This document shows, piece by piece, positions 4,555 through 59,140 of a DNA stretch of 64,000 bases. How positions within the stretch are numbered: position 1 is the stretch's first letter; each line of letters starts with the position of its first letter. A program made the position numbers and the translations under genes. The stretch covers positions 432,916 through 496,915 of the forward strand of contig JABWCG010000001.1 of assembly GCA_013359225.1 (NCBI GenBank), given 5' to 3'. A model generated the notes under the pieces. That model saw only the letters and a program-made list of their open reading frames with translations, did not search any database and had not been told where the DNA came from. The stretch comes from Candidatus Buchananbacteria bacterium. GTDB lineage: Bacteria > Patescibacteriota > Patescibacteriia > Buchananbacterales > UBA6539.

Positions 4555-5235
4555 ATGAAACGTTCAAAGCGTTATCAGGAATTAATCAAAAAGGTTGATA
4601 AGACAAAAGTCTATTCAATCGAAGAAGCAATTAAATTGATCAAAGAAACGGGAAAAACTAAGTTTGATAGTTCCGTTGAAGTCCACGCCCGGCTCGGGAT
4701 TGATCCCAAAAAAAGTGATCAGCAGGTCCGCGGCGCGGTCAGTCTTCCCCATGGCACCGGCAAAACCAAAAGAATCGCCGCTTTCGTCATGCCTGACAAA
4801 GAAAAAGAGGCCAAAGAAGCCGGCGCTGACGTTGTTGGCGGTCAAGAGTTGATTGAAGAAATCAAAAAAACCGGCAAGTGCGACTTTGACGTTGCCGTTG
4901 CCACTCCAGACATCATGCCAAAAATGGCTGTTGTCGCCAAAACCCTTGGACCACGAGGATTAATGCCGTCGCCGAAAAATGAAACAATTACGACAAATCT
5001 TAAAAAAACCATTGGCGAACTGAAAAAAGGCAAAGTTAGCTTCAAAAATGATGACACCTCAAACGTTCACCAGATTATTGGCAAAGTTTCATTTGACGAT
5101 AAACAGCTGTTAGAAAATTATACCGCTTTCATTGACGTCTTAAAAAAATCAAAGCCGTCTTCAGCAAAAGGAACTTTCATCCAAAATGTCAGTATTAGCT
5201 CAACAATGGGTCCTGGCATTAAAGTTCAACTCTAA
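4555..5235 (+). CDS. rplA: 50S ribosomal protein L1; start at the ATG after the Shine-Dalgarno AAAGGAA, 8 codons inside the track ORF
   Basis: The protein starts MKRSKRYQELIKKVDKTKVYSIEEAIKLIKE and ends in L1 C-terminal motifs. Confidence 0.93.
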   Translation: MKRSKRYQELIKKVDKTKVYSIEEAIKLIKETGKTKFDSSVEVHARLGIDPKKSDQQVRGAVSLPHGTGKTKRIAAFVMPDKEKEAKEAGADVVGGQELIEEIKKTGKCDFDVAVATPDIMPKMAVVAKTLGPRGLMPSPKNETITTNLKKTIGELKKGKVSFKNDDTSNVHQIIGKVSFDDKQLLENYTAFIDVLKKSKPSSAKGTFIQNVSISSTMGPGIKVQL

Positions 5236-5254
5236 AAATCCCTTGAAATCTTGA

Positions 5255-5288
5255 AAAACTCCGCCTTCAGCTTGGCGGAGTTTTTGAT
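5255..5288 (+). terminator. Rho-independent terminator after rplA
   Basis: Stem CTCCGCC / GGCGGAG with a loop TTCAGCTTG, followed by TTTTT. Confidence 0.6.
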
Positions 5289-5334
5289 TGGGAATTCTGG
5301 CTCTTTTAATGGTAAAAAACTAAAAAATTTTTAT

Positions 5335-5364
5335 TTGCCAAAAGCAACTAAAATCTGTTAAAAT
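5335..5364 (+). promoter_or_regulatory. Candidate promoter of the dTTP-synthesis operon (TTGCCA, 18-nt spacer, TAAAAT)
   Basis: The hexamers lie about 35 nt upstream of the dCMP deaminase ATG. Confidence 0.4.
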
Positions 5365-5398
5365 ATACTCGTTATTAGTAACATTCTTGTCAAAAATT

Positions 5399-5941
5399 AT
5401 GGCTGAAGAACGCAAGCATTATCGTCCAAATTGGGATGACTATTTCATGGCAATTGCCAAAATAGTGGCGGCTAGAGGAACCTGCGACCGACTCTACGCC
5501 TCAGCGGTTTTGGTGAAAGACAACAGAATAATCTCAACCGGTTATAATGGTTCGCCGCCAGGTTTGCCCCACTGTAATGATGTTGGCCATTTAATGGAAG
5601 AGGGCCACTGTGTCCGCACAATTCATGCCGAACATAATGCAATTTTACAAGCGGCCGCCCAGGGTGGTACCAGTACCATCGGCTCAACCATCTACATGAA
5701 ATACAGCCCATGCATTCACTGCACTAAATATATTATCTCAGCCGGCATAAAAAGGGTTGTGTTTGAAAAAATTTATCGCAATCAAAAAGTTACCGAAATG
5801 TTCAAACAGGCAGGCGTTGTTGTTGAAGAATACAAATCAAATCCGGCCTGGCAGGAAGAAATCCTCAAAATATTTTCCGAAGAAACACCAACTCGCATTA
5901 ATGAGGGCGAAGTTAAATTGGAGGAAAAAAATGAAGCCTAA
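5399..5941 (+). CDS. dCMP deaminase (deoxycytidylate deaminase); ATG start inside the track ORF that begins at 5387
   Basis: The cytidine/deoxycytidylate deaminase zinc motifs HAEHNAI and PCIHC are present. Confidence 0.85.
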   Translation: MAEERKHYRPNWDDYFMAIAKIVAARGTCDRLYASAVLVKDNRIISTGYNGSPPGLPHCNDVGHLMEEGHCVRTIHAEHNAILQAAAQGGTSTIGSTIYMKYSPCIHCTKYIISAGIKRVVFEKIYRNQKVTEMFKQAGVVVEEYKSNPAWQEEILKIFSEETPTRINEGEVKLEEKNEA

Positions 5942-6491
5942 AATAATTATCGGCCTCATTGGTGAATTGGCCGCTGGCAAAGGCACTATTACCCGCTACT
6001 TAAAAGAAAATCATCAGGCTGTTAGCTTTCGCTTTTCCGATCCCCTGCGCGAAACCTTAAATATTTTTGATCTTGATGTCTCGCGCGAAAACATGCAGAA
6101 CATCTCAACGATGCTACGAACAAACTTCGGCGAAAATATTCTGGCTAAAGCCATTGCGAAAAAGGTTCGCGAAGGAGATGATAACTTCATTGTAATTGAC
6201 GGCGTCAGGCGCCACACCGATCTAGAAAATTTAAGCGACGTACCGGGTTTTAATCTCGTATATATCACTGCCGATCAAAAAATTCGGCACGATCGCTATG
6301 TCAAACGAAACGAGAATGTTGGCGACGATAAAATGACTTTTGCCGATTTTCAAATCAAAGAACAGGCCGAAGCCGACCGACAGATTCCTGAAGTCGCCAA
6401 ATCAGCCAACTATAAAATAAACAACGACGGTTCGCTAGAACAGCTATATCAGCAAATTGAAGATACCATTAAAAAAATAAATGAAAATTAA
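5931..6491 (+). CDS. P-loop deoxynucleoside-monophosphate kinase, T4 gp1-like; start at the ATG after GGAGG, inside the track ORF that begins at 5757
   Basis: A Walker A motif (GLIGELAAGKGT) is present. The C-terminus NNDGSLEQLYQQIEDTIKKI resembles, as I recall it, the C-terminus of phage T4 dNMP kinase (NDGSLEELF...). The gene sits inside a thymidylate-synthesis gene cluster. Confidence 0.55.
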   Translation: MKPKIIIGLIGELAAGKGTITRYLKENHQAVSFRFSDPLRETLNIFDLDVSRENMQNISTMLRTNFGENILAKAIAKKVREGDDNFIVIDGVRRHTDLENLSDVPGFNLVYITADQKIRHDRYVKRNENVGDDKMTFADFQIKEQAEADRQIPEVAKSANYKINNDGSLEQLYQQIEDTIKKINEN

Positions 6492-6903
6492 AGTCAAAAG
6501 ATTAAACCCAGAAGCTCAACTCCCCTCATATGCCCATCCCGGAGATGTCGGGCTTGATCTATATGCACTGGAAAATTATCAGCTGTTACCTGGGGAAAAC
6601 AAGATCTTTTTCTTGGGCTTTGCCCTGGAGTTTCCTGAAGGCTACGCGGCGATTGTTAAGGATAAAAGCAGTCTGCCAAAGAACGGCAAAATTCACACCA
6701 TGGGCGGCGTCTATGACGCCGGGTATCGGGGAGAATACAATGTCAACCTAATTAATCTAGGTGATAAACCATACTTAATTGAAAAAGGAAATAAAATTGC
6801 TCAATTACTAATTATGCCGGTTGTCTTAGCCGAACTGGAAACTGTTGACCAGTTAAGCGAAACTAGTCGCGGCGAGGGTCGGTTCGGATCAACCGGAAAA
6901 TAA
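6481..6903 (+). CDS. dut: dUTP diphosphatase (dUTPase)
   Basis: 140 aa. The trimeric dUTPase motifs AHPGDVGLDLY, GYRGE and the C-terminal RGEGRFGSTG are present. Confidence 0.9.
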   Translation: MKIKVKRLNPEAQLPSYAHPGDVGLDLYALENYQLLPGENKIFFLGFALEFPEGYAAIVKDKSSLPKNGKIHTMGGVYDAGYRGEYNVNLINLGDKPYLIEKGNKIAQLLIMPVVLAELETVDQLSETSRGEGRFGSTGK

Positions 6904-6909
6904 AAAAAT

Positions 6910-9255
6910 ATGGAGGACAAAAAAGTATTTTATATTATTGCCATAGTAATTATACTGGCTTTAATTGTAACCGGGGTAATCCTGCTATTTTTTTATTTTC
7001 AAAAAACCAGTACCACCCCTGATCCCAATGCAGTCGCAAACGTCAATCAGAATCAAACTGCCGGAACCCTGCCAAATAACCAAACAGTTGGCGATCCAAA
7101 TGACCCCAATAACGCCGCTGCCGCCTCTTTAGCCAAAGAAAAACAATTTATTTCATCATTCTGGCGTCCGAGCGAAATCAGCTTTAACCCAAGCCTGCCA
7201 ACTTACCAGACTCCCATTACTGAAATCAAAAATCAAATTGTTAATTATCGAGACTTTTCAAGAAAAATTGATGTTGAATCTAGTCTCGAAAAATTAGCAG
7301 CAAATAGTTTCGTCGTCATCGCAGATCCGTTCAAATCGCAGTCATCTGACTGGGAAACAAGTTATAAATTAATCAGGGAAAACGAGTTGCCCATATTTAT
7401 CAGCACCGATTCTGTAGCCGGAGTATATCAAACCACTTTGCATGTTATCTATAAAGAAATTGAACAAGATATTTTTTATCCGTCGCTTTGGAAATTACTA
7501 AACCAACTTTACCAGAAAAATAAAGCACGCTATGACCAAAAGCTCAAACAATTTGGTATTCAAACTGACTTACTGACTGAAGCTAACCGCCTTGAATTGT
7601 CCTACCTAGCCGTGGCTCTCAAACTCCTCCAGCCGGATGTGGCTCAAATTAGAGAGCCGCTCTCAACTGATGACAATAAATTTTTTACGCCCCAAGAAGC
7701 AGGTCAATATGCTTTTAACATCCCCGATTATCTTGATAAAGAAGTGACTGGCGAAATTGAATTAATTACCAAAAAAATCAAGGGTGCTGAATCAAAGGTT
7801 TTTCTTTATCCAAAAAATTATCAAGTTTTTGACGTTCCTGAACAATATCGTACTTCAGAAAAACTCAAAAATTATTACCTGGCGATCACCTGGCTCAACG
7901 AAGGATTTTTCCCGCTCTGGCATCAGGATAATGACTGTGCTGATTGTCTACTTGACGAACAAGATCATCAGATCAACTTGGTGGCAGCACTGTTGCTCAG
8001 CACCGATCTAGCCAGTGATCAAAATCTTAAAAACAGTTGGGCTAATATTTATAAATCAATTTCCTTTTTCAGAGGCTTGGAATCAAACTTAACTTACATT
8101 GACTATGCCCAATCACTAAAAAATATTTTTGGGGATGACTACGATATTGAACAATTATTTAGCGCTGACAATGCCACCGTTAAAGAACGAATCAGTCTTA
8201 TCCAAGAAGCACTTGGCTCCGTCACATTTTTGAGTGCACTTGGTGGCGATAACCAGTCCAAACCAAATACTGGCCTGCGCCTGCTTAGAAACTACCATCT
8301 ATTAGAAAATAAACTCTTTAACCGATTAACCTATCAGGCTACCGGAGAATATCTTGGCGAAACTAAAAATGTTGTCTTGCCATTCACCGGTTGTAATGTT
8401 GAAAAATTATTCCTACGATGCTGGCCGACCAGCCTTGATTTATTCAACCTGCTTGGCAATCAAACAGCTGCTAATATCTTAAGCGAGAATAAAAATAATC
8501 TTTACCAAAATTACCAGCCCAACCTTAACCAGCTTAAAGAGGAGCTGACAAAATTTGATCAAAATACCTGGCATGATAATGCATACTTAAGCCTGTTGTC
8601 GGCATTACAAAAAATCAATCATGATAACACTGCTGGTTACCCGGTTTTTATGACAACTGACGCTTGGCGGAAAAAAACTTTAACTACCAGTCTCGGAGCC
8701 TGGGTTGATTTTCACAAAGAAATAAACTTTGAGCGGTCAGAAACAAAAGAAAGTGGCGGCTTGGGTTCTTACTTTCCATACGGCTATGTCGAACCGCAGG
8801 TGGCGTTTTATGGTGAATTGCTTAGCAACGTAAAAATGATTATTGAGGGTTTTAATACCTTGCAAATAATCTCACCCGTCAGCCGCTCATACGAACGGCT
8901 TAATAACTTAAAAATTACGCTTGAAAAGTTAGCCGACATTTCAAAAAAAGAATTAGAAAATACTTCGCTTGAACAGACTGATTACGAATTTATTAATAAT
9001 TTCAACAAACATATCCGAACCTTTATTGGTGACGTCCGCAAAGAAAGCATCCAAAATACTCATACTCTCAGATTCCCGCTAGAAAATAATCGGCTCCTTG
9101 ATCAAAAAAATAAAGGGCTTGATTATTTGATCGTCGCTTATCCGAATTCTACGGGGCAGTTGTTTTTCGCCATTGGTCCGGTGTATAGTTTCACCGAGGA
9201 AAAAAATGGCGGAGCCGCCTCAACTAATTGGCAAACCGACTATAAAATAAAGTAA
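6910..9255 (+). CDS. Hypothetical large membrane-anchored protein (781 aa, N-terminal TM helix, Asn/Gln/Pro-rich linker)
   Basis: A long intact ORF with host-like codon usage. No recognisable family. It is inserted between dut and thyA. Confidence 0.7.
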   Translation: MEDKKVFYIIAIVIILALIVTGVILLFFYFQKTSTTPDPNAVANVNQNQTAGTLPNNQTVGDPNDPNNAAAASLAKEKQFISSFWRPSEISFNPSLPTYQTPITEIKNQIVNYRDFSRKIDVESSLEKLAANSFVVIADPFKSQSSDWETSYKLIRENELPIFISTDSVAGVYQTTLHVIYKEIEQDIFYPSLWKLLNQLYQKNKARYDQKLKQFGIQTDLLTEANRLELSYLAVALKLLQPDVAQIREPLSTDDNKFFTPQEAGQYAFNIPDYLDKEVTGEIELITKKIKGAESKVFLYPKNYQVFDVPEQYRTSEKLKNYYLAITWLNEGFFPLWHQDNDCADCLLDEQDHQINLVAALLLSTDLASDQNLKNSWANIYKSISFFRGLESNLTYIDYAQSLKNIFGDDYDIEQLFSADNATVKERISLIQEALGSVTFLSALGGDNQSKPNTGLRLLRNYHLLENKLFNRLTYQATGEYLGETKNVVLPFTGCNVEKLFLRCWPTSLDLFNLLGNQTAANILSENKNNLYQNYQPNLNQLKEELTKFDQNTWHDNAYLSLLSALQKINHDNTAGYPVFMTTDAWRKKTLTTSLGAWVDFHKEINFERSETKESGGLGSYFPYGYVEPQVAFYGELLSNVKMIIEGFNTLQIISPVSRSYERLNNLKITLEKLADISKKELENTSLEQTDYEFINNFNKHIRTFIGDVRKESIQNTHTLRFPLENNRLLDQKNKGLDYLIVAYPNSTGQLFFAIGPVYSFTEEKNGGAASTNWQTDYKIK

Positions 9256-9258
9256 ATT

Positions 9259-10131
9259 ATGAAAGCATACCTAGACATTGTTAAAAAAGTTCTAACCGAC
9301 GGAACTAAAAAAGAAAATCGTACCGGTATTGATACCATTTCAATCGCCGGCATGATGTTTGAACATGATATGGCCGAAGGCTACCCGTTGCTCACCACTA
9401 AAAAAGTACCATTTCGCCTAGTCGCTAGCGAACTTGAATTCTTTATCAAAGGCTTAACCGACAAACAGTGGCTAATTGACCGCAATAACCACATTTGGGA
9501 TGAATGGGCCAACCCTAAAAAAGCGCCATACGGCCACGACGAAGCGGCCAAAAACAAAATGGCTGCTGAACGCGACTTGGGCGCGATTTATGGCTTTCAG
9601 TGGCGGCATTTCAATGCCGCTTATGATAATTTTGATTCAAATTACTCCGGCCAAGGCGTTGATCAACTCAAAAAACTGGTTGAAACGATTAAAACTAATC
9701 CCAACGATCGCCGAATGATTGTTTCAGCCTGGAACCCATTACAAATGAACGAAATGGCGTTGCCTCCATGCCACTACTTATTTCAAGTAGTTATAACAGG
9801 CAACAAATTAAATTTAATGTGGAATCAGCGTTCCGTTGACGTCATGTTAGGCCTGCCATTTAACATCGCCAGCTATTCCCTGCTACTTCACCTGTTAGCC
9901 AAAGAAACCGGCTACCAGGAAGGCCGCCTGGTTGGTTTTTTAGGTGATGTTCATATTTATGAAAATCATATTAAAGGTGCTAAAGAACAACTCTCTCGCG
10001 ATCCGAATAAATATAAACTCCCCACAGTTGAAACTAAAAATTTCCAATCAATCTTTGAGTGGCAATATACCGACACCGAATTAATTAATTACCAAAGCTA
10101 TCCGACCATTAAGCTTGAAATCGCTGTTTAA
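9259..10131 (+). CDS. thyA: Thymidylate synthase ThyA
   Basis: 290 aa. The motifs RTGIDTIS, ...LPPCH..FQ and the conserved C-terminus are present. Confidence 0.95.
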   Translation: MKAYLDIVKKVLTDGTKKENRTGIDTISIAGMMFEHDMAEGYPLLTTKKVPFRLVASELEFFIKGLTDKQWLIDRNNHIWDEWANPKKAPYGHDEAAKNKMAAERDLGAIYGFQWRHFNAAYDNFDSNYSGQGVDQLKKLVETIKTNPNDRRMIVSAWNPLQMNEMALPPCHYLFQVVITGNKLNLMWNQRSVDVMLGLPFNIASYSLLLHLLAKETGYQEGRLVGFLGDVHIYENHIKGAKEQLSRDPNKYKLPTVETKNFQSIFEWQYTDTELINYQSYPTIKLEIAV

Positions 10132-10133
10132 CT

Positions 10134-10649
10134 ATGAAAATAATTCTCATGATGGCAATGACTGCCGATGGCATTATTGCTAAACACAAAGACCATACTG
10201 CTGACTGGACCACCAAAGCCGATAAAAAAGCATTTATCGCCGAAACTAAAAAACATGGGGTCATCATTATGGGCGAAACCACATTTAACACCATTGGCCG
10301 CCCCTTGCCTGGACGACTGAATTTAATTTTAACGCTAACGCCGGAAAAATATCAGGAGCAAGTTCAACCAGGTTTGTTGGAATTTATGAACGCCCCAGCT
10401 GAAACAGTGGTACAAACCCTGGAGCAACGAGGCTTTACGTCAGCGGTACTTGGTGGTGGCGCCAGAACAAACTCTTTCTTTTTAAAAGCAAATTTAGTAG
10501 ATGAGATTTTAATTACGGTTGAACCAAAAATTTTTGGAATGGGTATGAACTTTACCGAAGGTGAAGACCTCGACCTTAATTTACAGCTTCTGGCGGCAAA
10601 AGAAATTGGAGACCAGGCCGTTCAGCTTCATTACAAAATAATAAAATAA
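10134..10649 (+). CDS. folA: Dihydrofolate reductase
   Basis: 171 aa. The motifs MAMTADGIIA and IIMGETTFNTIGRPLPGR are present. It lies immediately downstream of thyA. Confidence 0.85.
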   Translation: MKIILMMAMTADGIIAKHKDHTADWTTKADKKAFIAETKKHGVIIMGETTFNTIGRPLPGRLNLILTLTPEKYQEQVQPGLLEFMNAPAETVVQTLEQRGFTSAVLGGGARTNSFFLKANLVDEILITVEPKIFGMGMNFTEGEDLDLNLQLLAAKEIGDQAVQLHYKIIK

Positions 10650-10668
10650 AAAAGAGGTAAAACCTCTT
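10640..10668 (-). terminator. Rho-independent terminator of the minus-strand gene 10676-11017 (also a hairpin after folA)
   Basis: Stem GAGGT / ACCTC with an AAAA loop. On the minus strand it is followed by TTTTTTATTTT. Confidence 0.45.
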
Positions 10669-10675
10669 AAGCGTG

Positions 10676-11017
10676 TCAGGACTGGCAAAATGCCAGACCG
10701 ACTTTCCGCAAAACAAAAGTAAAACAAACAAAGAACAAAACCAGCACTGCTGTCGTCAACCAGGACACATCTGGTATCTGGTAAAGCGACGTCAGCAATC
10801 GGGCGCCGAGCGTAAGCGGGCTCGCCAGATACAACGCATACATGCAGGGCATAAAACACCCGCTGATCAGCAGAACTGTTCTACCACACTCTCGTCCATT
10901 GCGAAGAGCGGCAAACATTGATAATCCGACGGCCAAAACCAGCCAGGCCGCCAAAACAGCTAACAGCACGATACCGATCATATTGCGTCCTCCAAGATGG
11001 TTGGGGCCAAACCGCAA
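10676..11017 (-). CDS. Hypothetical small membrane protein (113 aa), GC-richer than its surroundings
   Basis: Two or three predicted TM helices. It has its own terminator. It is antisense-embedded between folA and tmk. Confidence 0.4.
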   Translation of the reverse strand: MRFGPNHLGGRNMIGIVLLAVLAAWLVLAVGLSMFAALRNGRECGRTVLLISGCFMPCMYALYLASPLTLGARLLTSLYQIPDVSWLTTAVLVLFFVCFTFVLRKVGLAFCQS

Positions 11018-11047
11018 ACAATGCTACTCTAACTAATTACCAAATAA

Positions 11048-11722
11048 ATGTCAAACCACATCGGAAAACTTATCGTCATTGAAGGAATTGATGGTTCTGG
11101 TAAAGCCACTCAAACCAGAATTCTTTTTGAAAAACTTAAAGCTTCGCACCTGGATGTTGAGACAATTGATTTTCCTCAGTACACTAACAATTTTTTCGGC
11201 CGGCAGGTGAGGCGCTATCTAAATGGTGAATTTGGCGATCCAACAAAAGTTAATCCTTATCTGGCTTCAATTCTTTACGCTGCCGACCGCTGGGAATCAA
11301 GCGATAAAATCAAGCAGTGGCTTGATCAAGGAAAGATTGTCTTGCTGGACCGATATTATACAAGCAACCTTATCCACCAGGGTACTAAATTTTCTCAAGA
11401 TGAGTTAGAGAAATTTATTTCCTGGAATGAAGCAATGGAGTTTGATACTTTTCAAATCCCCAGACCCGACCTAATACTCTATCTTCATTTACCGGCGGCT
11501 ATGGCCTATGATCTGATTACCAAGCGCGGCCAAGGCCACGACGGACATGATACGCTTGAACATATGCAAACCGCCGAAACCCGATGTCAATATCTTGCCG
11601 CAAAACTTAACTGGCAAACCATTGAGTGTTGCGATACTACCGGGCTCTTACCAATTGAGGAAATCGCCAACATCATCTGGCACGCACTACAACCAATACT
11701 TGAGAAAAATAAAATTTTATAG
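11048..11722 (+). CDS. tmk: Thymidylate kinase
   Basis: 224 aa. The P-loop reads IVIEGIDGSGKATQ, and the DRY motif and lid region are present. Confidence 0.9.
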   Translation: MSNHIGKLIVIEGIDGSGKATQTRILFEKLKASHLDVETIDFPQYTNNFFGRQVRRYLNGEFGDPTKVNPYLASILYAADRWESSDKIKQWLDQGKIVLLDRYYTSNLIHQGTKFSQDELEKFISWNEAMEFDTFQIPRPDLILYLHLPAAMAYDLITKRGQGHDGHDTLEHMQTAETRCQYLAAKLNWQTIECCDTTGLLPIEEIANIIWHALQPILEKNKIL

Positions 11723-11727
11723 CTAAA

Positions 11728-11756
11728 ATTAAGCCTGATTTTAGGCTTTATTTTTC
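11728..11756 (+). terminator. Terminator after tmk
   Basis: Stem AAGCCT / AGGCTT with a loop GATTTT, followed by TATTTTT. Confidence 0.5.
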
Positions 11757-11811
11757 AGGCAGTTTATGATAAGCTAGTACAGTAAAACAATCATTTTTAT
11801 CAAAATATCCT

Positions 11812-13347
11812 ATGAAATTAACCCCGGTAATTGGGCTGGAAATCCATGTTCAATTAAAGACTAAATCAAAAATGTTTTCCCCGGCCGATAATACTGGCGA
11901 AGACAAGCCCGCTAACACCACCATTAATCCGATTGATCTGGCCCATCCTGGCACCCTGCCAGTAACAAACCGCCAAGCGGTTGAATGGTCAGTCATGTCA
12001 GCAATGGCCATTAACTGCACCATCCCCGAAATTTCCAAATTTGACCGCAAAAGTTATTTTTATCCCGACCTGCCCAAGGGTTACCAAATTTCACAATATG
12101 ATCAGCCTATCGGCCTGAAAGGCTATTTAGATATCGAAACAAAAGACGGTCAGCGACGAATTGGCATCACCCGCCTCCACCTCGAAGAAGATGCCGCTAA
12201 AAATTTCCACTCAGCCGATGGTAAATATACACTGGTAGATTACAACCGCGCCGGCACACCGCTGATGGAAATTGTTACCGAACCTGACATGCGCACCCCC
12301 GCTGAAGCTAAAACTTTCATGCAAGAGCTACGCATGATTATGCGCTATCTCGGAGTATCTGACGCGGACATGGAGAAAGGTCATTTGCGTTGTGATGCAA
12401 ATATTTCTCTTACTGACCAAGACCCGGAAAATATCAACATTAAAAAACTTAAACCAAAAACTGAAGTTAAAAACATTAACTCATTTCGAGCTGTCGAAAA
12501 AGCTTTGGAGTATGAGATTAAACGACAAACAAAGCTATGGGAGGAAGGAAAAATTCCTGATACACAAACAACTCGCGGCTGGAATGAAGACAAAGGCGTT
12601 ACCGAAGAACAGCGCACTAAGGAGGAAGCATCAGACTATCGATATTTCCCAGAACCGGATTTGCCACCAATTAATTTCACCCCCGGAGCGCCAAATGCAA
12701 TCGATGTAGCAAAAATCAAAAATAGTTTGCCAGAGTTACCTCAAAACAAACGCCTTCGCTTTATTCAAGAATTTGAATTAAGCCCCGACAATGCCAAAAT
12801 CATCACTGATGATAAAGGTTTAGCCAACTTCTTTGAACAGGCAATGTCTGAGCTTCGCGCCTGGCTAATTTCGCTGGATGAAACCGAAGGTACCAAAGAA
12901 GAAATTTGGGATACTAACAAGGCCAAGCTTGCTAAGCTATGCGCCAACTGGCTAATCAATAAACTAATGGCTTTGATTTACAAAGAAAATAAAGATCTGC
13001 AAAGCTGTCAGGAAATCACCGCTGAAAATTTTGCTGAATTTATATCGCTTGTTTATCAAAATAAAATCAACTCAACCGTTGCTCAAAAAATTCTTGAAAA
13101 AATGCACCAAACCGGCAAAGATCCTTCGGTTATCATAGAAGAAGATGATTTAGGCAGTACCCAAGACAGTGGAGCTTTAGAAAAGATTATTGACCAAATA
13201 ATCATTAATAACCCAAAACAGGTTGAACAATATAAAAATGGCAAGGAAACACTTATTCAGTTTTTTGTTGGCCAGGTGATGAAAGAAACCAAGGGTCAGG
13301 CTGACCCAAATGAAACTAAAGATTTACTAACAAATAAACTAAAATAA
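11812..13347 (+). CDS. gatB: Asp/Glu-tRNA(Asn/Gln) amidotransferase subunit B
   Basis: 511 aa. The N-terminus reads MKLTPVIGLEIHVQLKTKSKMF. The GatB/YqeY C-terminal domain is present. Confidence 0.93.
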   Translation: MKLTPVIGLEIHVQLKTKSKMFSPADNTGEDKPANTTINPIDLAHPGTLPVTNRQAVEWSVMSAMAINCTIPEISKFDRKSYFYPDLPKGYQISQYDQPIGLKGYLDIETKDGQRRIGITRLHLEEDAAKNFHSADGKYTLVDYNRAGTPLMEIVTEPDMRTPAEAKTFMQELRMIMRYLGVSDADMEKGHLRCDANISLTDQDPENINIKKLKPKTEVKNINSFRAVEKALEYEIKRQTKLWEEGKIPDTQTTRGWNEDKGVTEEQRTKEEASDYRYFPEPDLPPINFTPGAPNAIDVAKIKNSLPELPQNKRLRFIQEFELSPDNAKIITDDKGLANFFEQAMSELRAWLISLDETEGTKEEIWDTNKAKLAKLCANWLINKLMALIYKENKDLQSCQEITAENFAEFISLVYQNKINSTVAQKILEKMHQTGKDPSVIIEEDDLGSTQDSGALEKIIDQIIINNPKQVEQYKNGKETLIQFFVGQVMKETKGQADPNETKDLLTNKLK

Positions 13348-30152: not shown

Positions 30153-30326
30153 CTATTTCTTTTTTGCAGCCCCCAACCAGGCCACACAGTCTCGACAATA
30201 CATGCCCCCATTTGTTCGACACTTCTTACAGGCCTTAGTGTCTGGCACGATATCGCACCTATGAGGACGCCCCGGATATTTAGCCTTACCACCACCGTCA
30301 TAGTTATGGCTTGGCTTTTTGCTCAT
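30153..30326 (-). CDS. Cys-rich zinc-ribbon microprotein (57 aa); below the ORF-track length cutoff
   Basis: The translation is MSKKPSHNYDGGGKAKYPGRPHRCDIVPDTKACKKCRTNGGMYCRDCVAWLGAAKKK. Its ATG overlaps the pyrF stop in an ATGA arrangement, indicating translational coupling. A terminator follows. Confidence 0.4.
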   Translation of the reverse strand: MSKKPSHNYDGGGKAKYPGRPHRCDIVPDTKACKKCRTNGGMYCRDCVAWLGAAKKK

Positions 30327-31165
30327 GCAGTCTGCTCCAGAGCAGCATTGATTTGATCGCGTAGCTCACAGGCTCGTTGCCCGGCGACTTCCGCAAAATC
30401 AGCCTCAGACGAGGCGTGAATAATGCCTCGTGACGAATTAATGACAAACGGATATGTCCTGGCGTATCTGACGGTTTCCAGTAATTCACCTCCCTGGGAA
30501 CCAACGCCGGGAATCAGGAGCGGAATTTCCGCGGGCCGCCAAATGGGGTTGTCGGTCCCCAAAAATTTAATCTGACCCGGAAATGTTGCTCCCATCACAA
30601 ACCCAATCCGGGTACTTTCCTCGGTTTGCAATGCAGCAACTTCGTGAGCCAGATAAACGAATAACGGTTTGCCGCCGCCAACGCAGTCCTCCTGAAACTT
30701 GGCCGCGCCCTTATTGCTGGTATGCGACAAAACGTACAGTCCTTTCGCCGCGCCCCACCTCAACCACGGCGCCAATGTGTCGGTACCCAGGTAGGCATTG
30801 AGCGTCACGGCATCAGCGCCGAATCGTTCAAATGCCGCGACGGCATATTTCTCGGCCGTGTTGCCAATGTCGCCATACTTGGCGTCCAAGATAACCGGCA
30901 AGCAAACCTCCGACTGAATAAAGCTGATCAGTTTTGCCAGCTCCGGTTCGGCTTCGCAGCTTTGCCAAAAAGCCAAATTCGGTTTGTAGCAACATGCGTA
31001 CGGCGCAGTCCGCTCGACAATATCGCTTGCAAACCGGATCAACTGTTCCCGCAGACTGCCTTTGAGCACTGGCAGTTTATCAGGGTCGGGATCCAACCCA
31101 ACACAGACGCGAGTTTGGTGCTGAGCCTGAATCTCGCACAATCGGTCCAGAAAAGATATCATCAC
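30323..31165 (-). CDS. pyrF: Orotidine-5'-phosphate decarboxylase, type 2 (long, actinobacterial-like form); high GC
   Basis: 280 aa. The N-terminal RVCVGLDPDPDKL and overall length fit type-2 OMP decarboxylase. GC is about 55% against a genome background of about 40%. Confidence 0.8.
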   Translation of the reverse strand: MMISFLDRLCEIQAQHQTRVCVGLDPDPDKLPVLKGSLREQLIRFASDIVERTAPYACCYKPNLAFWQSCEAEPELAKLISFIQSEVCLPVILDAKYGDIGNTAEKYAVAAFERFGADAVTLNAYLGTDTLAPWLRWGAAKGLYVLSHTSNKGAAKFQEDCVGGGKPLFVYLAHEVAALQTEESTRIGFVMGATFPGQIKFLGTDNPIWRPAEIPLLIPGVGSQGGELLETVRYARTYPFVINSSRGIIHASSEADFAEVAGQRACELRDQINAALEQTA

Positions 31166-31190
31166 GAAATCTCCTTTTTTCGTCCCGGCG

Positions 31191-31883
31191 CTAGAGTGCT
31201 AACACACCGCGCGGCACGGAACTTTGCGGATGACGCTCGTAAAACTCCTTGCCGTGACCAACCATCATATTGATCGGCACAAGATCAGCACACTGTGGGC
31301 AGGTTTCTTCCGGGTGCATCACCATCGGAATATCATACAGCGTTTCAAGAACCGGAACGCCAAGCTGTTCAGCAGTAATGCCGCCGCGGTTACAAATCAC
31401 CGCCACTCCGGCGACAATGCCACCAACCTCATTAACAGCGTTAATCGTCGCCACGGCGGAACCACCGCTGGCAAACACGTCTTCAGTCACGAGCCCGTTT
31501 TGGCCAGCGACAATTGTCGGGAAATAACGGCCGATGACACGTTCTCCCTTTTTAACACCGTCGCCTGTCTTTTCCTGGGCAAACACCCAGTTAACTTCCC
31601 GACCAGTGATCCGGCTCAGCCAACACGCTGTCGCCGCTGCCAGACCAACCGCACCATACGTCGGTCCGATCACAACGCTGATGTCGTGATCAACGAAACG
31701 CAAGGCGATGATTCGGGCGGCTGCCGAAAGCAGCCGACCGCTGGACAACAGTCGATCCTTGTCAAAGTACCCGGGAGCATGAAAATGCCCGGCGGGCTTA
31801 GGAGTTAACACGACATGGTCGTCGGTCAAAATCGCTCCTCGAGCTTTGGCAGCTTCAAGGATTTCAGCCAAACTCATCTCCAT
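31191..31883 (-). CDS. pyrE: Type I phosphoribosyltransferase, orotate PRTase-like; start at the internal Met (MEMSLAEILE) preceded by GGAGG; high GC
   Basis: The PRTase PRPP-binding motif LVTEDVFASGGS is present. It lies directly upstream of pyrF in the same orientation. There is an unusual C-terminal extension containing CPQC. Confidence 0.55.
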   Translation of the reverse strand: MEMSLAEILEAAKARGAILTDDHVVLTPKPAGHFHAPGYFDKDRLLSSGRLLSAAARIIALRFVDHDISVVIGPTYGAVGLAAATACWLSRITGREVNWVFAQEKTGDGVKKGERVIGRYFPTIVAGQNGLVTEDVFASGGSAVATINAVNEVGGIVAGVAVICNRGGITAEQLGVPVLETLYDIPMVMHPEETCPQCADLVPINMMVGHGKEFYERHPQSSVPRGVLAL

Positions 31884-32041
31884 ACGACTTTTCCTCCTGT
31901 AACCGGTTGTTTTATTCGCCAGAATAAATAGATTGGAAGGTACACAGCCCCCCAACTGCCTAATTACTTTAGTTAGTATTAAAAATAAAGTCAAGGATAA
32001 TTTTTATCTCAATTAAGCTAAAATATAGGCCTGAATCAATC

Positions 32042-57982: not shown

Positions 57983-59140
57983 ATGTTTGGAAAACGCGGT
58001 TTTTTCGGATTCGGACGTCAGGACGATAATTCGGGTGCCGGCAACAACGTTGAACCTTGCGCCATATGCGGCGTGGTCCACGAAAACCCGGTGACGGCGA
58101 ATGAGATGAAAGGCATGGGCATGCTTCCGGGCCTGCTGGGCGCACTGCTGAGCGGCGGGCTTGGCGGTGGCATCCCCGGAGTCGATGTCGAAACCACCAC
58201 GGTGATGATCAACCCCAAAACCGGCGAAGTCAAGACCCTGACGCGCGGCTCGCGCCTGGAAGAAGTCGACCTTTCGGCGTTCGATCCGGACGTGATCCGG
58301 CAACTCGAAGAGGTGGCCAATTTCGACCGCCTCGTCGACGAGAAGTCCAGCAAGGCATCCGAGCTACGGCGCGAAGTCTCCCTGTTGGAGCGTAACCTCC
58401 GTCGCGCCGAAACCCGCCTCAAGCATTCGCTCTGGGGCCAGGTCGACGGACGCTACTATGGCGACGACCAGCTCGAGATCGGGCGTGAAGGCGAAGAAAC
58501 GGTTCGCATCAGCCGCCGCGGCGACCACATCTGCATCGTGGAGGGCGAACTGGGTCAGCAACTGATGTCCCAGCAAGACGCCATCGAACAGATGAGTGGC
58601 ACCATCCGCGACAAGAACCGCGAAGCCGAAACCCTGGAGCGCGAGGCCAAGCACCAACCGGAGCTGGCGAGGGTGATGCATGAAGAGGCCACAGAGGCGC
58701 TGTTCAACTACCTGCGCCAGACCGGCAACCGCGAGCTGATGCGTCAGCTCATGACCGACCGCGCGTTCCTCCACGTCGACGAAACCGGCAAGCTCGGCAT
58801 CTCTGCGATGGTCGACATCAACGAGCAGACCGACGGCGTGCCCGAGGAAATCCGCGACATGATGGCCGTGATGCAGAAGCATCACCCCAGCGGTCGCGCG
58901 CTACCCCCCGCCGTGGCCAAGCTTCTCGGCCTGAATACTCCCGAACTGCCGCCGGTGTCGGATGAACTGCCGGTCGGACCCATCACCTCTCCCGACGCCA
59001 TCAGCGACGAAGGCGCGGCCGCCGAAAACAACGGCAAAGACGTGGTTCCTCCCGGAACCTTCATGGCCGACGAACCCGTCCTGGTCGCGGCCAACGAACC
59101 GCCCCTGGGCGACCCCGACGGCGGCAAACTCGGCGACTAG
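57983..59140 (+). CDS. Hypothetical protein (385 aa) of strongly foreign composition (about 62% GC): Gly-rich N-terminus with a CAICG motif, central charged coiled-coil-like region, Pro/Asp-rich acidic tail
   Basis: A single long ORF with GC3-rich codons (GGC, CTG, GAC, CGC). All overlapping opposite-strand ORFs are stop-poor artefacts of the high GC. A native promoter, a Shine-Dalgarno and a downstream terminator flank it. Confidence 0.6.
   Translation: MFGKRGFFGFGRQDDNSGAGNNVEPCAICGVVHENPVTANEMKGMGMLPGLLGALLSGGLGGGIPGVDVETTTVMINPKTGEVKTLTRGSRLEEVDLSAFDPDVIRQLEEVANFDRLVDEKSSKASELRREVSLLERNLRRAETRLKHSLWGQVDGRYYGDDQLEIGREGEETVRISRRGDHICIVEGELGQQLMSQQDAIEQMSGTIRDKNREAETLEREAKHQPELARVMHEEATEALFNYLRQTGNRELMRQLMTDRAFLHVDETGKLGISAMVDINEQTDGVPEEIRDMMAVMQKHHPSGRALPPAVAKLLGLNTPELPPVSDELPVGPITSPDAISDEGAAAENNGKDVVPPGTFMADEPVLVAANEPPLGDPDGGKLGD

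Follow-up and report, generated by a model that had tools for sequence, protein, structure and literature searches.

A probable housekeeping dTTP-synthesis operon of Candidatus Buchananbacteria carries a predicted (d)NMP kinase related to archaeal UPF0200 proteins

The deoxynucleoside-monophosphate kinase of phage T4, gp1 (PDB 1DEK/1DEL, Pfam PF21448), is a protein of 241 aa in which K37, R68/R132, and R177 are ligands of the dNMP phosphate, E181 of the base, and R197 and N223 of ATP (PMC10653934, Table 2). In the T4 genome, gene 1 is surrounded by tail genes, and no nucleotide-metabolism gene adjoins it. Judging from the published description, a cellular member of the gp1 family has a precedent in the chromosomal kinase PP_1964 of Pseudomonas putida: its gene lies in a prophage-like island disrupting tmk, and its product takes over from Tmk with an essential role in thymidylate phosphorylation (PMC10653934). 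Related kinase domains occur in the anti-phage dCTP deaminase DcdV, a defence protein with an N-terminal kinase and a C-terminal deaminase in one polypeptide, both domains of which are required for dC-nucleotide depletion (bioRxiv 10.1101/2021.03.31.437871), and in the archaeal UPF0200 proteins, for which SSO1041, PDB 3H0K, PDB 3LW7 (AMP bound), and NCBIfam PRK08356 served as our references. A literature search for "UPF0200" found no paper, and searches for papers on thymidylate metabolism in Patescibacteria or on the kinase domain of DcdV gave no functional data for the kinase family described here.

We analysed a 64,000-nucleotide stretch of a Candidatus Buchananbacteria chromosome, referred to below as the window. 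An earlier note on this DNA had reported six co-oriented nucleotide-metabolism genes, and both the coordinates and the shared forward strand of all six were confirmed by ORF calls and profile matches. Two genes were absent from that account, one for a 781-aa DUF3160 protein and the other a small antisense membrane ORF. The features of the region are as follows.

5335..5364, forward strand: promoter-like site 5' of the deaminase gene, TTGCCA-18-TAAAAT with TG (pattern match alone)
5387..5941, forward strand: dCMP deaminase, ComEB-type, with an alternative ATG start at 5399 (PF00383 8.9e-26, 90.2 bits against a cutoff of 25; TIGR02571 ComEB 2.2e-44; phrog_174 dCMP deaminase 1.1e-51)
5931..6491, forward strand: P-loop kinase of 186 aa with an NMP-kinase fold, assigned to the UPF0200/phage dNMP kinase/DcdV kinase domain clade
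6481..6903, forward strand: dUTPase, trimeric Dut type (PF00692 5.1e-26; TIGR00576 126.4 bits against a cutoff of 102.55)
6910..9255, forward strand: DUF3160 protein of 781 aa, between dut and thyA (PF11369 4.2e-93)
9259..10131, forward strand: thymidylate synthase ThyA (PF00303 6.8e-97; TIGR03284 309.5 bits against a cutoff of 108.35)
10134..10649, forward strand: DHFR, DHFR_1/RibD_C type (PF00186 3.1e-13, 50.2 bits against a cutoff of 25; PF01872 1.7e-19)
10652..10668, no strand assigned: hairpin AAGAGGT-TTT-ACCTCTT with A/T runs on both sides, a terminator-like match on the reverse strand
10676..10981, reverse strand: hydrophobic ORF of 101 aa, antisense, between the DHFR gene and tmk, preceded by GGAGGA
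11048..11722, forward strand: thymidylate kinase Tmk (PF02223 1.6e-26; TIGR00041 89.1 bits against a cutoff of 83.25)
11731..11748, forward strand: terminator-like hairpin 3' of tmk (pattern match alone)

All five canonical dTTP enzymes (dCMP deaminase, Dut, ThyA, DHFR, and Tmk) exceeded the curated cutoffs of their families, and the deaminase translation contains the HAE and PCxxC motifs. The kinase gene begins within the end of the deaminase gene, and the dUTPase gene within the end of the kinase gene, with an overlap of 11 bp in each case. The DUF3160 protein has a hydrophobic N-terminal segment, and its gene occupies this operon position only in loci L005 and L008-L010 among the related loci compared; it is a lineage-specific insert into the operon and probably lies outside the dTTP pathway.

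We read the region as a housekeeping dTTP-synthesis operon whose extra kinase is a predicted (d)NMP kinase not acquired from a phage, and place the probability of this reading at roughly 0.6. By the reactions established for the families that the profiles matched, the deaminase would convert dCMP to dUMP and the dUTPase dUTP to dUMP, ThyA together with DHFR would convert dUMP to dTMP, and Tmk would phosphorylate dTMP to dTDP. The kinase is predicted to phosphorylate a nucleotide bearing a 5'-phosphate, namely a (d)NMP, with ATP, because its invariant arginines fall at the acceptor-phosphate sites of gp1- and adenylate-type kinases. Gene order and the translational coupling with the deaminase gene suggest that it acts on pyrimidine dNMPs, so that a (d)NMP kinase at the dCMP/dTMP level is its most likely identity as far as sequence tells. 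The reversible conversion of dCMP to dCDP would be the most likely reaction, dividing dC nucleotide between dCTP and the path through the deaminase to dTTP; dTMP, dUMP, or dGMP may be further substrates. Two observations run counter to a dNMP kinase role: the cluster already encodes Tmk, and the closest family, archaeal UPF0200, is found in an RNA-processing neighbourhood rather than a dTTP one. The heavy dependence of thymidylate on dCMP/dUMP salvage proposed in the earlier note is plausible.

A profile search with an alignment of ten kinase sequences provided 76 other species-level loci from Patescibacteria for comparison. Within 6 kb of the kinase gene, a dCMP deaminase was found in 68 of the 76 loci, a thymidylate synthase likewise in 68 (ThyA in 50 and ThyX in 18), a dUTPase in 54, and Tmk in 38. 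The deaminase gene lies directly upstream of the kinase gene in 36 loci, and tmk lies directly downstream in 25. The linkage is retained where ThyX replaces ThyA and DHFR, and likewise where MazG replaces Dut. Recurrence in 68 of the 76 other species puts the clustering far above chance, and the operon is normal for the phylum rather than a T4-like import; the earlier description of it as unusual for a chromosomal operon does not hold. The kinase family comprises 509 clusters (50% identity) at E ≤ 1e-30, and all close relatives of the kinase belong to Patescibacteria. Relatives of 380-395 aa were considered as deaminase-kinase fusions and rejected as such, being tandem kinases. No paralogue of the kinase was detected by HMM search within the window, and E. 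coli CoaE and Cmk as tblastn queries gave no match in the window or in any of the related loci, a result that covers these stretches and not the full genomes.

The proposal that the kinase is a gp1-like dNMP kinase stands as far as homology at the profile level is concerned. PHROG_139, which includes gp1, matched the kinase over residues 1-184 (2.5e-19) and all 33 members of the family set used for profile tests (best 1e-24). Of the E. coli controls, CoaE matched at 5.6e-7 through its N-terminus and P-loop only, and Cmk did not match. An hhalign comparison of the family with a 21-sequence gp1 alignment was end to end (98.5% probability, E 4e-15, 152 columns), and the phage BC-VP kinase gave 7.4e-15. 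The signal was weaker elsewhere. The Pfam DNMK profile (PF21448) reached 28.8 bits against a cutoff of 27.1 over residues 6-45 only; Pfam hits among the 33 members were weak and divided between CoaE (22/33) and DNMK (17/33), all within the P-loop region; and in single-sequence hhalign the family profile matched T4 gp1 at 1.3e-4, no better than CoaE (2.7e-5, across the C-terminal 63 columns) or Cmk (4.8e-5). The kinase C-terminus, which the earlier note had likened to that of gp1 (NDGSLEELF...), was quoted correctly and does align with T4 gp1 "...ITNDGSLEELFSKIKNTLK" (BLASTP, 15/40 identities, pairwise E 3e-5, with 1DEK matched); however, the NDGSLE motif is not diagnostic, being present in kinases of the CoaE type too, and the corresponding residues are VIDNNG in CoaE and ITNDS in UPF0200. 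Taken at the level of sequence, the kinase is a real yet remote relative of T4 gp1.

The AF2 model of the kinase has a pLDDT of 93.7. The residues invariant in the family (R40, R52, R63, R93/R94, D97, R122, R126, and N165) align with the gp1 ligands of the dNMP phosphate, the base, and ATP. R40, R52, R63, R93, and D97 correspond to the dNMP and base positions by alignment, without structural superposition, and the mapping of R52 and R63 differs between programs: hhalign pairs R52 with R132, while in the MAFFT alignment R52 falls opposite R68 and R63 next to R132/R133. The P-loop reads GELAAGKGT in the kinase and GxKRSGKDT in gp1. The kinase lacks the helical domain that is inserted in gp1 after helix 2 (residues ~45-130), showing gaps opposite gp1 43-130, and gp1's extra insertion amounts to ~60-70 residues. 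Short PHROG_139 members such as the Herelleviridae-type kinase of BC-VP likewise lack this insertion, and the BC-VP kinase shares the thymidylate context, being also encoded between thyA and the DHFR gene. Unlike the phage kinases, the Patescibacteria family is cellular, vertically conserved, and found alongside a canonical Tmk. It also differs from PP_1964 in that the kinase gene adjoins an intact tmk and has no mobile-element setting.

The nearest relative of the kinase is archaeal UPF0200 and not gp1. The hhalign comparison with UPF0200 gave 5.9e-34, and the two resemble each other in sequence and fold over their full length. They have in common a DGVR(R/S) motif, the LID arginines, and a C-terminal I-x-N-(D/N), and both matched the anti-phage dCTP deaminase model in its kinase region. 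Nonetheless, the identity is just ~23%, the PRK08356 score of the kinase (80.9 bits) is below the cutoff of 189, and the S-R-E-N-x-Q motif invariant in the Patescibacteria family is missing in UPF0200. The settings differ as well: a PF01877 RNA-binding gene follows both archaeal copies examined, no thymidylate genes are present there, and the Sulfolobus copy is also near a CCA-adding enzyme and LigT. With the PADLOC dCTPase model, the kinase matched at 9.4e-11 (positions 152-333) and the deaminase at 1.2e-24 (positions 437-507). Its kinase region matched kinases of the Patescibacteria (CPR) family at 1e-10 to 1.8e-18 and UPF0200 at 8e-22; CoaE, Cmk, and T4 gp1 gave no match. The NCBIfam antiphage_deaminase model (NF041025) also matched both proteins, with scores of 22 and 74 bits that are far below its cutoff of 400. 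On these sequence comparisons, the kinase belongs to a clade that joins archaeal UPF0200, the PHROG_139 phage dNMP kinases, and the kinase domain found in anti-phage dCTP deaminases. As in DcdV, a homologous kinase is paired here with an enzyme of the dCMP-deaminase fold; in contrast to DcdV, each is encoded by its own gene, the deaminase gene coming first, inside a housekeeping operon and not a defence island.

Two other readings of the kinase concern its origin and its current annotation. The earlier note regarded the cluster as a phage-T4-like nucleotide-precursor module, taken from or left by a phage. The enzyme set does resemble the dNTP-synthesis enzymes of T4, the kinase and gp1 share PHROG_139, and in Herelleviridae phages such as Bacillus phage BC-VP a kinase of this clade occurs together with thyA and DHFR (in the order thyA, kinase, DHFR). 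Yet no integrase, phage structural, or other mobile-element gene was found within ~15 kb of the cluster; the flanks consist of the core genes gyrB, secE, nusG, rplK, rplA, gatB, miaA, thrS, a GNAT acetyltransferase gene, and dnaE. The interval between rplA and gatB is a recurring chromosomal position of the cluster in many species, and the GC content is even (0.40-0.42) along it. A Buchananbacteria contig of 601,517 bp encodes a protein with 100% identity to the kinase. The ten-sequence alignment found no relative in IMG/VR, tblastn against a phage collection gave just seven weak matches (25-28% identity), and T4 gene 1 itself, amid tail genes, offers no such module. The phage-derived reading is largely refuted by these data and highly improbable; the cluster is best read as a housekeeping chromosomal operon. 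Similarly remote is the chance that the kinase is a dephospho-CoA kinase. The databases label the family "AAA family ATPase" or "dephospho-CoA kinase", the latter used by JGI and some NCBI records for UPF0200 as well, and the weak Pfam CoaE matches and the C-terminal hhalign match to E. coli CoaE noted above agree with it, as do the shared fold of P-loop kinases and a C-terminus that resembles the DNNG motif. Neither CoaE nor adenylate kinase is the best profile match, however: PF01121 scored 19.1 bits against a cutoff of 27 within the P-loop (residues 5-27 only), and TIGR00152 scored 27.8 bits against 65.55 (residues 6-30). CoaE in turn matched PHROG_139 at the P-loop only and failed to match the PADLOC kinase region that the kinase family matches. 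CoaE is characterised by an acidic D-x-D motif after strand 2. At this site E. coli CoaE reads VIDADIIAR, with D-A-D where the kinase family has the L-R motif of NMP kinases; the family has no invariant Asp there, and S36, L39, and R40 of its S36-x-x-L-R40 are invariant. Its conserved neighbours are thymidylate genes and never CoA genes. Both database labels are almost certainly wrong.

The remaining readings accept a housekeeping kinase and assign it a different activity. It might be a partner of the deaminase, a split housekeeping form of DcdV that binds or dephosphorylates dCDP/dCTP and passes on dCMP, or that controls the deaminase. The matches of both proteins to the PADLOC and antiphage_deaminase models, the restriction of the DcdV kinase domain to the UPF0200/CPR clade, the frequent position of the deaminase gene directly upstream with its 11-bp overlap in the window, and the need for both domains in DcdV all point in this direction. 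We consider it rather unlikely all the same, as many loci have the kinase apart from the deaminase and beside tmk or dhfr, the gene order is the reverse of that in the fusion, no deaminase-kinase fusion was found among the 150 closest cluster representatives, and the complete catalytic-type arginine set is invariant, consistent with an active kinase. It is equally doubtful, though conceivable, that the pair represents a free-standing form of the two-domain dCTP deaminases whose complex channels any dC nucleotide to dUMP, for example through a reverse kinase reaction on dCDP or through binding of dCTP. If so, the pair would show the role of the DcdV kinase domain and give the UPF0200-like clade its first function. 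A deoxynucleoside kinase that turns salvaged deoxycytidine into dCMP or salvaged thymidine into dTMP would suit Patescibacteria, which reportedly have no de novo nucleotide synthesis and rely on salvage (PMC12455944), as well as the position of the gene at the pathway entry beside the deaminase gene; weak Pfam dNK matches occur in 4 of the 33 members. The fold and motifs are those of NMP kinases, though, the invariant arginines align with the phosphate-binding residues of gp1, and the closest solved structure carries bound AMP, a nucleotide, which makes this activity unlikely. Finally, the conversion of dTDP to dTTP is the sole step with no enzyme in the cluster. A kinase substituting for NDP kinase on dTDP or another dNDP would let the operon lead all the way from dCMP to dTTP, and tmk often follows the kinase gene directly. 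In E. coli, a deficiency in NDP kinase can be covered by adenylate kinase. Such an activity is not usual for the fold and the arginine pattern suits a monophosphate acceptor, so that we hold this possibility to be quite improbable.

Under the preferred reading of a dTTP operon with a (d)NMP kinase, the biochemistry is ordinary: dC and dU nucleotides would be turned into dTTP along the route of Gram-positive bacteria and eukaryotes, here in a bacterium with a reduced genome. Relabelling the kinase takes a false CoA-biosynthesis call out of metabolic reconstructions of Patescibacteria and gives their nucleotide-salvage scheme a candidate dNMP kinase. The homology to the DcdV domain and the conserved adjacency to the deaminase gene offer a simple system for probing the DcdV kinase domain.

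The region also contains several possible signals. In a consensus scan of 5100-11900, the promoter-like site at 5335..5364 (10/12 matches) tied as best with four others and was alone among the five in having TG before the second hexamer. Rfam at gathering thresholds and ARAGORN found no RNA element and no tRNA anywhere in the window, so the gap between the DHFR gene and tmk (10650-11047) is not explained by an RNA element. The 101-aa antisense ORF in this gap, of which none of the 76 related loci has a homologue, is treated as an orphan outside the pathway. Its local GC content is 0.51, and a pattern scan placed a reverse-strand promoter-like site for it at 11054-11026. The hairpin at 10652..10668 is terminator-like for this ORF and possibly for the operon too.

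The six genes that the earlier note had read as a phage-T4-like dTTP-synthesis module are all present on the forward strand at the positions given there, as determined by ORF listing and profile scans. The observation thus stands, and its interpretation is supported in part.

Features of the dTTP cluster (window positions, strand, description, best profile match)
5335–5364: promoter-like site
5387–5941, +: dCMP deaminase, ComEB-type (PF00383, 8.9e-26); the earlier note placed its ATG at 5399
5931–6491, +: P-loop kinase, 186 aa
6481–6903, +: dUTPase (TIGR00576, 126 bits)
6910–9255, +: DUF3160 protein between dut and thyA, 781 aa, with a hydrophobic N-terminus (PF11369, 4e-93)
9259–10131, +: ThyA (TIGR03284, 309 bits)
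10134–10649, +: DHFR
10652–10668: hairpin 3' of the DHFR gene
10676–10981, −: hydrophobic 101-aa ORF, antisense between the DHFR gene and tmk
11048–11722, +: Tmk (TIGR00041, 89 bits)

The deaminase and kinase genes, and likewise the kinase and dUTPase genes, overlap by 11 bp, and the remaining junctions are 2–6 bp, so that the region 5387–10649 reads as a single tightly packed transcription unit. Two features had been absent from the earlier note: the DUF3160 gene, and the hairpin with the antisense ORF after the DHFR gene. The DUF3160 gene lies inside the dTTP operon only in a Buchananbacteria-like lineage (the window and loci L008–L010 and L005); in two other loci (L053 and L068), a DUF3160 gene is located approximately 6 kb away on the opposite strand. 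The antisense ORF is equipped with a GGAGGA ribosome-binding site and with a promoter-like site (11054–11026) and a terminator-like site (10668–10652) of its own. It has two or three predicted membrane segments, and the local GC content is 0.51 versus approximately 0.41 nearby. No homologs of this ORF were found in 76 related loci. In the related marine genome of L005, two small, unrelated antisense genes occupy the same spot between the DHFR gene and tmk.

The setting of the cluster is chromosomal. A 601,517-bp contig of Candidatus Buchananbacteria (Patescibacteria/CPR) encodes a protein with 100% identity to the kinase. The cluster is preceded by gyrB, secE, nusG, rplK, and rplA and followed by gatB, miaA, thrS, a GNAT acetyltransferase gene, dnaE, and pheT, and the GC content stays at 0.40–0.42 both within the cluster and on either side of it. 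Neither integrase genes nor phage structural genes occur near the cluster, and no relatives of the kinase turned up when the IMG/VR viral contigs were scanned. These core-gene flanks, the even GC content, and the absence of both nearby phage genes and IMG/VR relatives led us to reject a phage-derived module, and the description "phage-like" was incorrect. A search of a phage collection with the kinase gave only seven matches, with 25–28% identity. T4 gene 1, which encodes the dNMP kinase gp1, sits among tail genes with no adjoining nucleotide-metabolism gene, and the parallel with T4 is therefore limited to enzyme content; the shared enzymes are simply the universal enzymes of the dTTP pathway.

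The contigs of three diverse kinase homologs show the same neighborhood. When one genome was scanned for each species, 76 kinase loci were obtained, mostly named as Patescibacteria lineages or just "bacterium"; roughly a dozen have been labeled automatically as "uncultured Gammaproteobacteria," and one as Lysobacteraceae. Within 6 kb of the kinase gene, dCMP deaminase was found in 68 of the 76 loci, thymidylate synthase also in 68 (ThyA in 50 and ThyX in 18), dUTPase in 54, GatB in 40, Tmk in 38, and DHFR in 34, all of which are lower bounds because contig ends interrupt many loci. The gene directly upstream of the kinase gene encodes the deaminase in 36 loci, DHFR in 15, and ThyX in 12, and that directly downstream is tmk in 25 and dut in nine. 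The gene order is shuffled between lineages, ThyA and DHFR are swapped for ThyX in some lineages and Dut for MazG in others, and the kinase gene is nevertheless retained in the cluster. The recurrence of this linkage indicates that the operon is the rule in the phylum and that the function of the kinase is linked to thymidylate metabolism. The operon itself is ordinary, contrary to the earlier view that it is unusual on a chromosome. ThyA and DHFR give way to a ThyX-like protein of 429 aa in loci of the Falkowbacteria type (L054, 6684–7973), in which the kinase gene lies between the gene for this protein and that of a 436-aa Tmk–dUTPase fusion (L054, 8552–9862). A MazG-family pyrophosphohydrolase occupies the place of dUTPase in L003 (7561–7890), L058, and L079, where the order is thyA-dhfr-kinase-mazG-tmk.

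An alignment of 33 family sequences, down to 41% identity, revealed invariant residues in the P-loop (G11, G16, and K17) and beyond it (S36-x-x-L39-R40, R52, N54, S59, R63, G91, R93-R94, D97, R122, R126, N129, D132, and N165). The AlphaFold model of the kinase (pLDDT 93.7) displays a classical NMP-kinase fold. The curated models give no clear family assignment: Pfam DNMK scored 28.8 bits (cutoff 27.1) over residues 6–45 only, Pfam CoaE 19.1 bits (cutoff 27), and NCBIfam PRK08356 80.9 bits (cutoff 189). In profile–profile comparisons, the family matched the archaeal family UPF0200 with an E-value of 5.9e-34 (99.9%) and the T4 gp1 family with 4e-15 (98.5%, end to end), and UPF0200 matched the gp1 family with 3.6e-10. 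Against single sequences, the family profile gave E-values of 1.1e-19 for SSO1041 (a UPF0200 member), 7.4e-15 for the Bacillus phage BC-VP kinase, 2.7e-5 for E. coli CoaE (the C-terminal 63 columns only), 4.8e-5 for E. coli Cmk, and 1.3e-4 for T4 gp1.

Two libraries that were searched with controls proved more informative. PHROG_139, to which T4 gp1 (1.8e-65) and the BC-VP kinase (8e-56) belong, matched all 33 family members over their full length (best E-value, 1e-24). Among the controls, it matched E. coli CoaE in the P-loop only (5.6e-7), and did not match E. coli Cmk. With the kinase region of the PADLOC model of the anti-phage dCTP deaminase, the E-value was 9.4e-11 for the window kinase, as low as 1.8e-18 for other family members, 8e-22 for UPF0200, and 2.7e-8 for the BC-VP kinase; CoaE, Cmk, and T4 gp1 gave no match. 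Together with their controls, these results place the kinase in a clade with UPF0200, short phage dNMP kinases, and the kinase domain of DcdV, an anti-phage kinase–deaminase fusion. T4 gp1 appears to be a more derived member of this clade, and CoaE lies outside it. Identity of the kinase with CoaE was rejected on the basis of the sub-cutoff Pfam score, the P-loop-only PHROG_139 match, and the unmatched PADLOC kinase region. The kinase is a new, mislabeled protein of a known enzyme kind, and the connection with anti-phage dCTP deaminases makes it modestly interesting. Among the relatives of 380–395 aa, P0190, P0202, and P0213 are tandem two-kinase proteins, in which a generic P-loop kinase domain precedes the family domain; L082 contains two separate kinase copies.

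The C-terminal resemblance to gp1, on which the earlier note had relied, is real but not specific to gp1. The motif belongs to the ATP-base site in gp1 (N223 and G225; PMC10653934). CoaE ("VIDNNG"; also in T. maritima CoaE) and UPF0200 ("ITNDS") share this "hydrophobic-x-N-(D/N)-G" motif, again with a helix after it, and the motif hence marks a wider kinase group. The helical insertion and RSGKD P-loop of T4 gp1 are both missing from the kinase. The term "gp1-like" holds for remote homology and the probable reaction type, and for nothing beyond those levels.

Comparison with gp1 at the residue level suggests that the acceptor would already carry a phosphate. The "L-R", "DG-x-R", and LID arginines are the pattern of adenylate- and UMP/CMP-type kinases. 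The invariant R40, R52, R63, and R93 align with gp1 K37, R68/R132, and R177, which are ligands of the dNMP phosphate; D97 is aligned to E181, a base ligand, and R126 and N165 to the ATP ligands R197 and N223 (PMC10653934, Table 2). The pairing of R52 and R63 with R68 or R132 differs between hhalign and MAFFT, although arginines are there in both. Since the kinase gene is always kept with the thymidylate genes and its translation is coupled to that of the deaminase gene, the substrate would be a pyrimidine deoxynucleotide from the thymidylate pathway. Our best guess is that the kinase would run the reversible conversion dCMP <-> dCDP at the dCTP/dTTP branch point; the substrate assignment is weak. 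A wider dNMP range, by analogy with the phage enzymes, is possible. In Bacillus phage BC-VP (Herelleviridae; L089, 3045–5426), the thymidylate synthase gene is followed in direct succession by genes for a short dNMP kinase of PHROG_139, a hypothetical protein, and DHFR, the same kinase–thymidylate linkage as in Patescibacteria.

Other roles have to be weighed against dCMP phosphorylation. P. putida PP_1964 has been shown to replace Tmk (PMC10653934); the presence of Tmk makes a plain replacement of this kind unlikely here. The kinase may instead work together with the deaminase, as a split counterpart of DcdV, the activity of which requires both domains (bioRxiv 10.1101/2021.03.31.437871), or it may act as a deoxynucleoside kinase or an NDP-kinase substitute. 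The neighborhood of UPF0200 is different: in both copies examined, from Sulfolobus and Thermococcus (L084, 5001–5997; L085, 5001–6020), the next gene belongs to PF01877 ("RNA_binding"), and the Sulfolobus copy is also near genes for a CCA-adding enzyme and a LigT-type 2',3'-phosphoesterase. These gene neighbors hint at an RNA-related role for UPF0200, a warning that function may vary inside the clade.

Neither tRNAs and rRNAs nor members of other Rfam families were detected in the whole 64-kb window, and the cumulative GC skew declines steadily over 1–64000. The highest GC content (0.554) occurs at 58–60 kb, where a 385-aa ORF without a Pfam match (57983–59140, +) has overlapping ORFs on the other strand. 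Another patch of elevated GC content (30323–31994, −; 0.515 versus approximately 0.41) encodes OMP decarboxylase (PF00215, 1.6e-26) beside a weak phosphoribosyltransferase-domain match (PF00156; 24.4 bits, just under the cutoff of 26.3). If the PF00156 gene encodes orotate phosphoribosyltransferase, the pair would account for the two final reactions of UMP synthesis, in a genome from a group reported to lack de novo nucleotide synthesis (PMC12455944). This gene pair may have been acquired horizontally.
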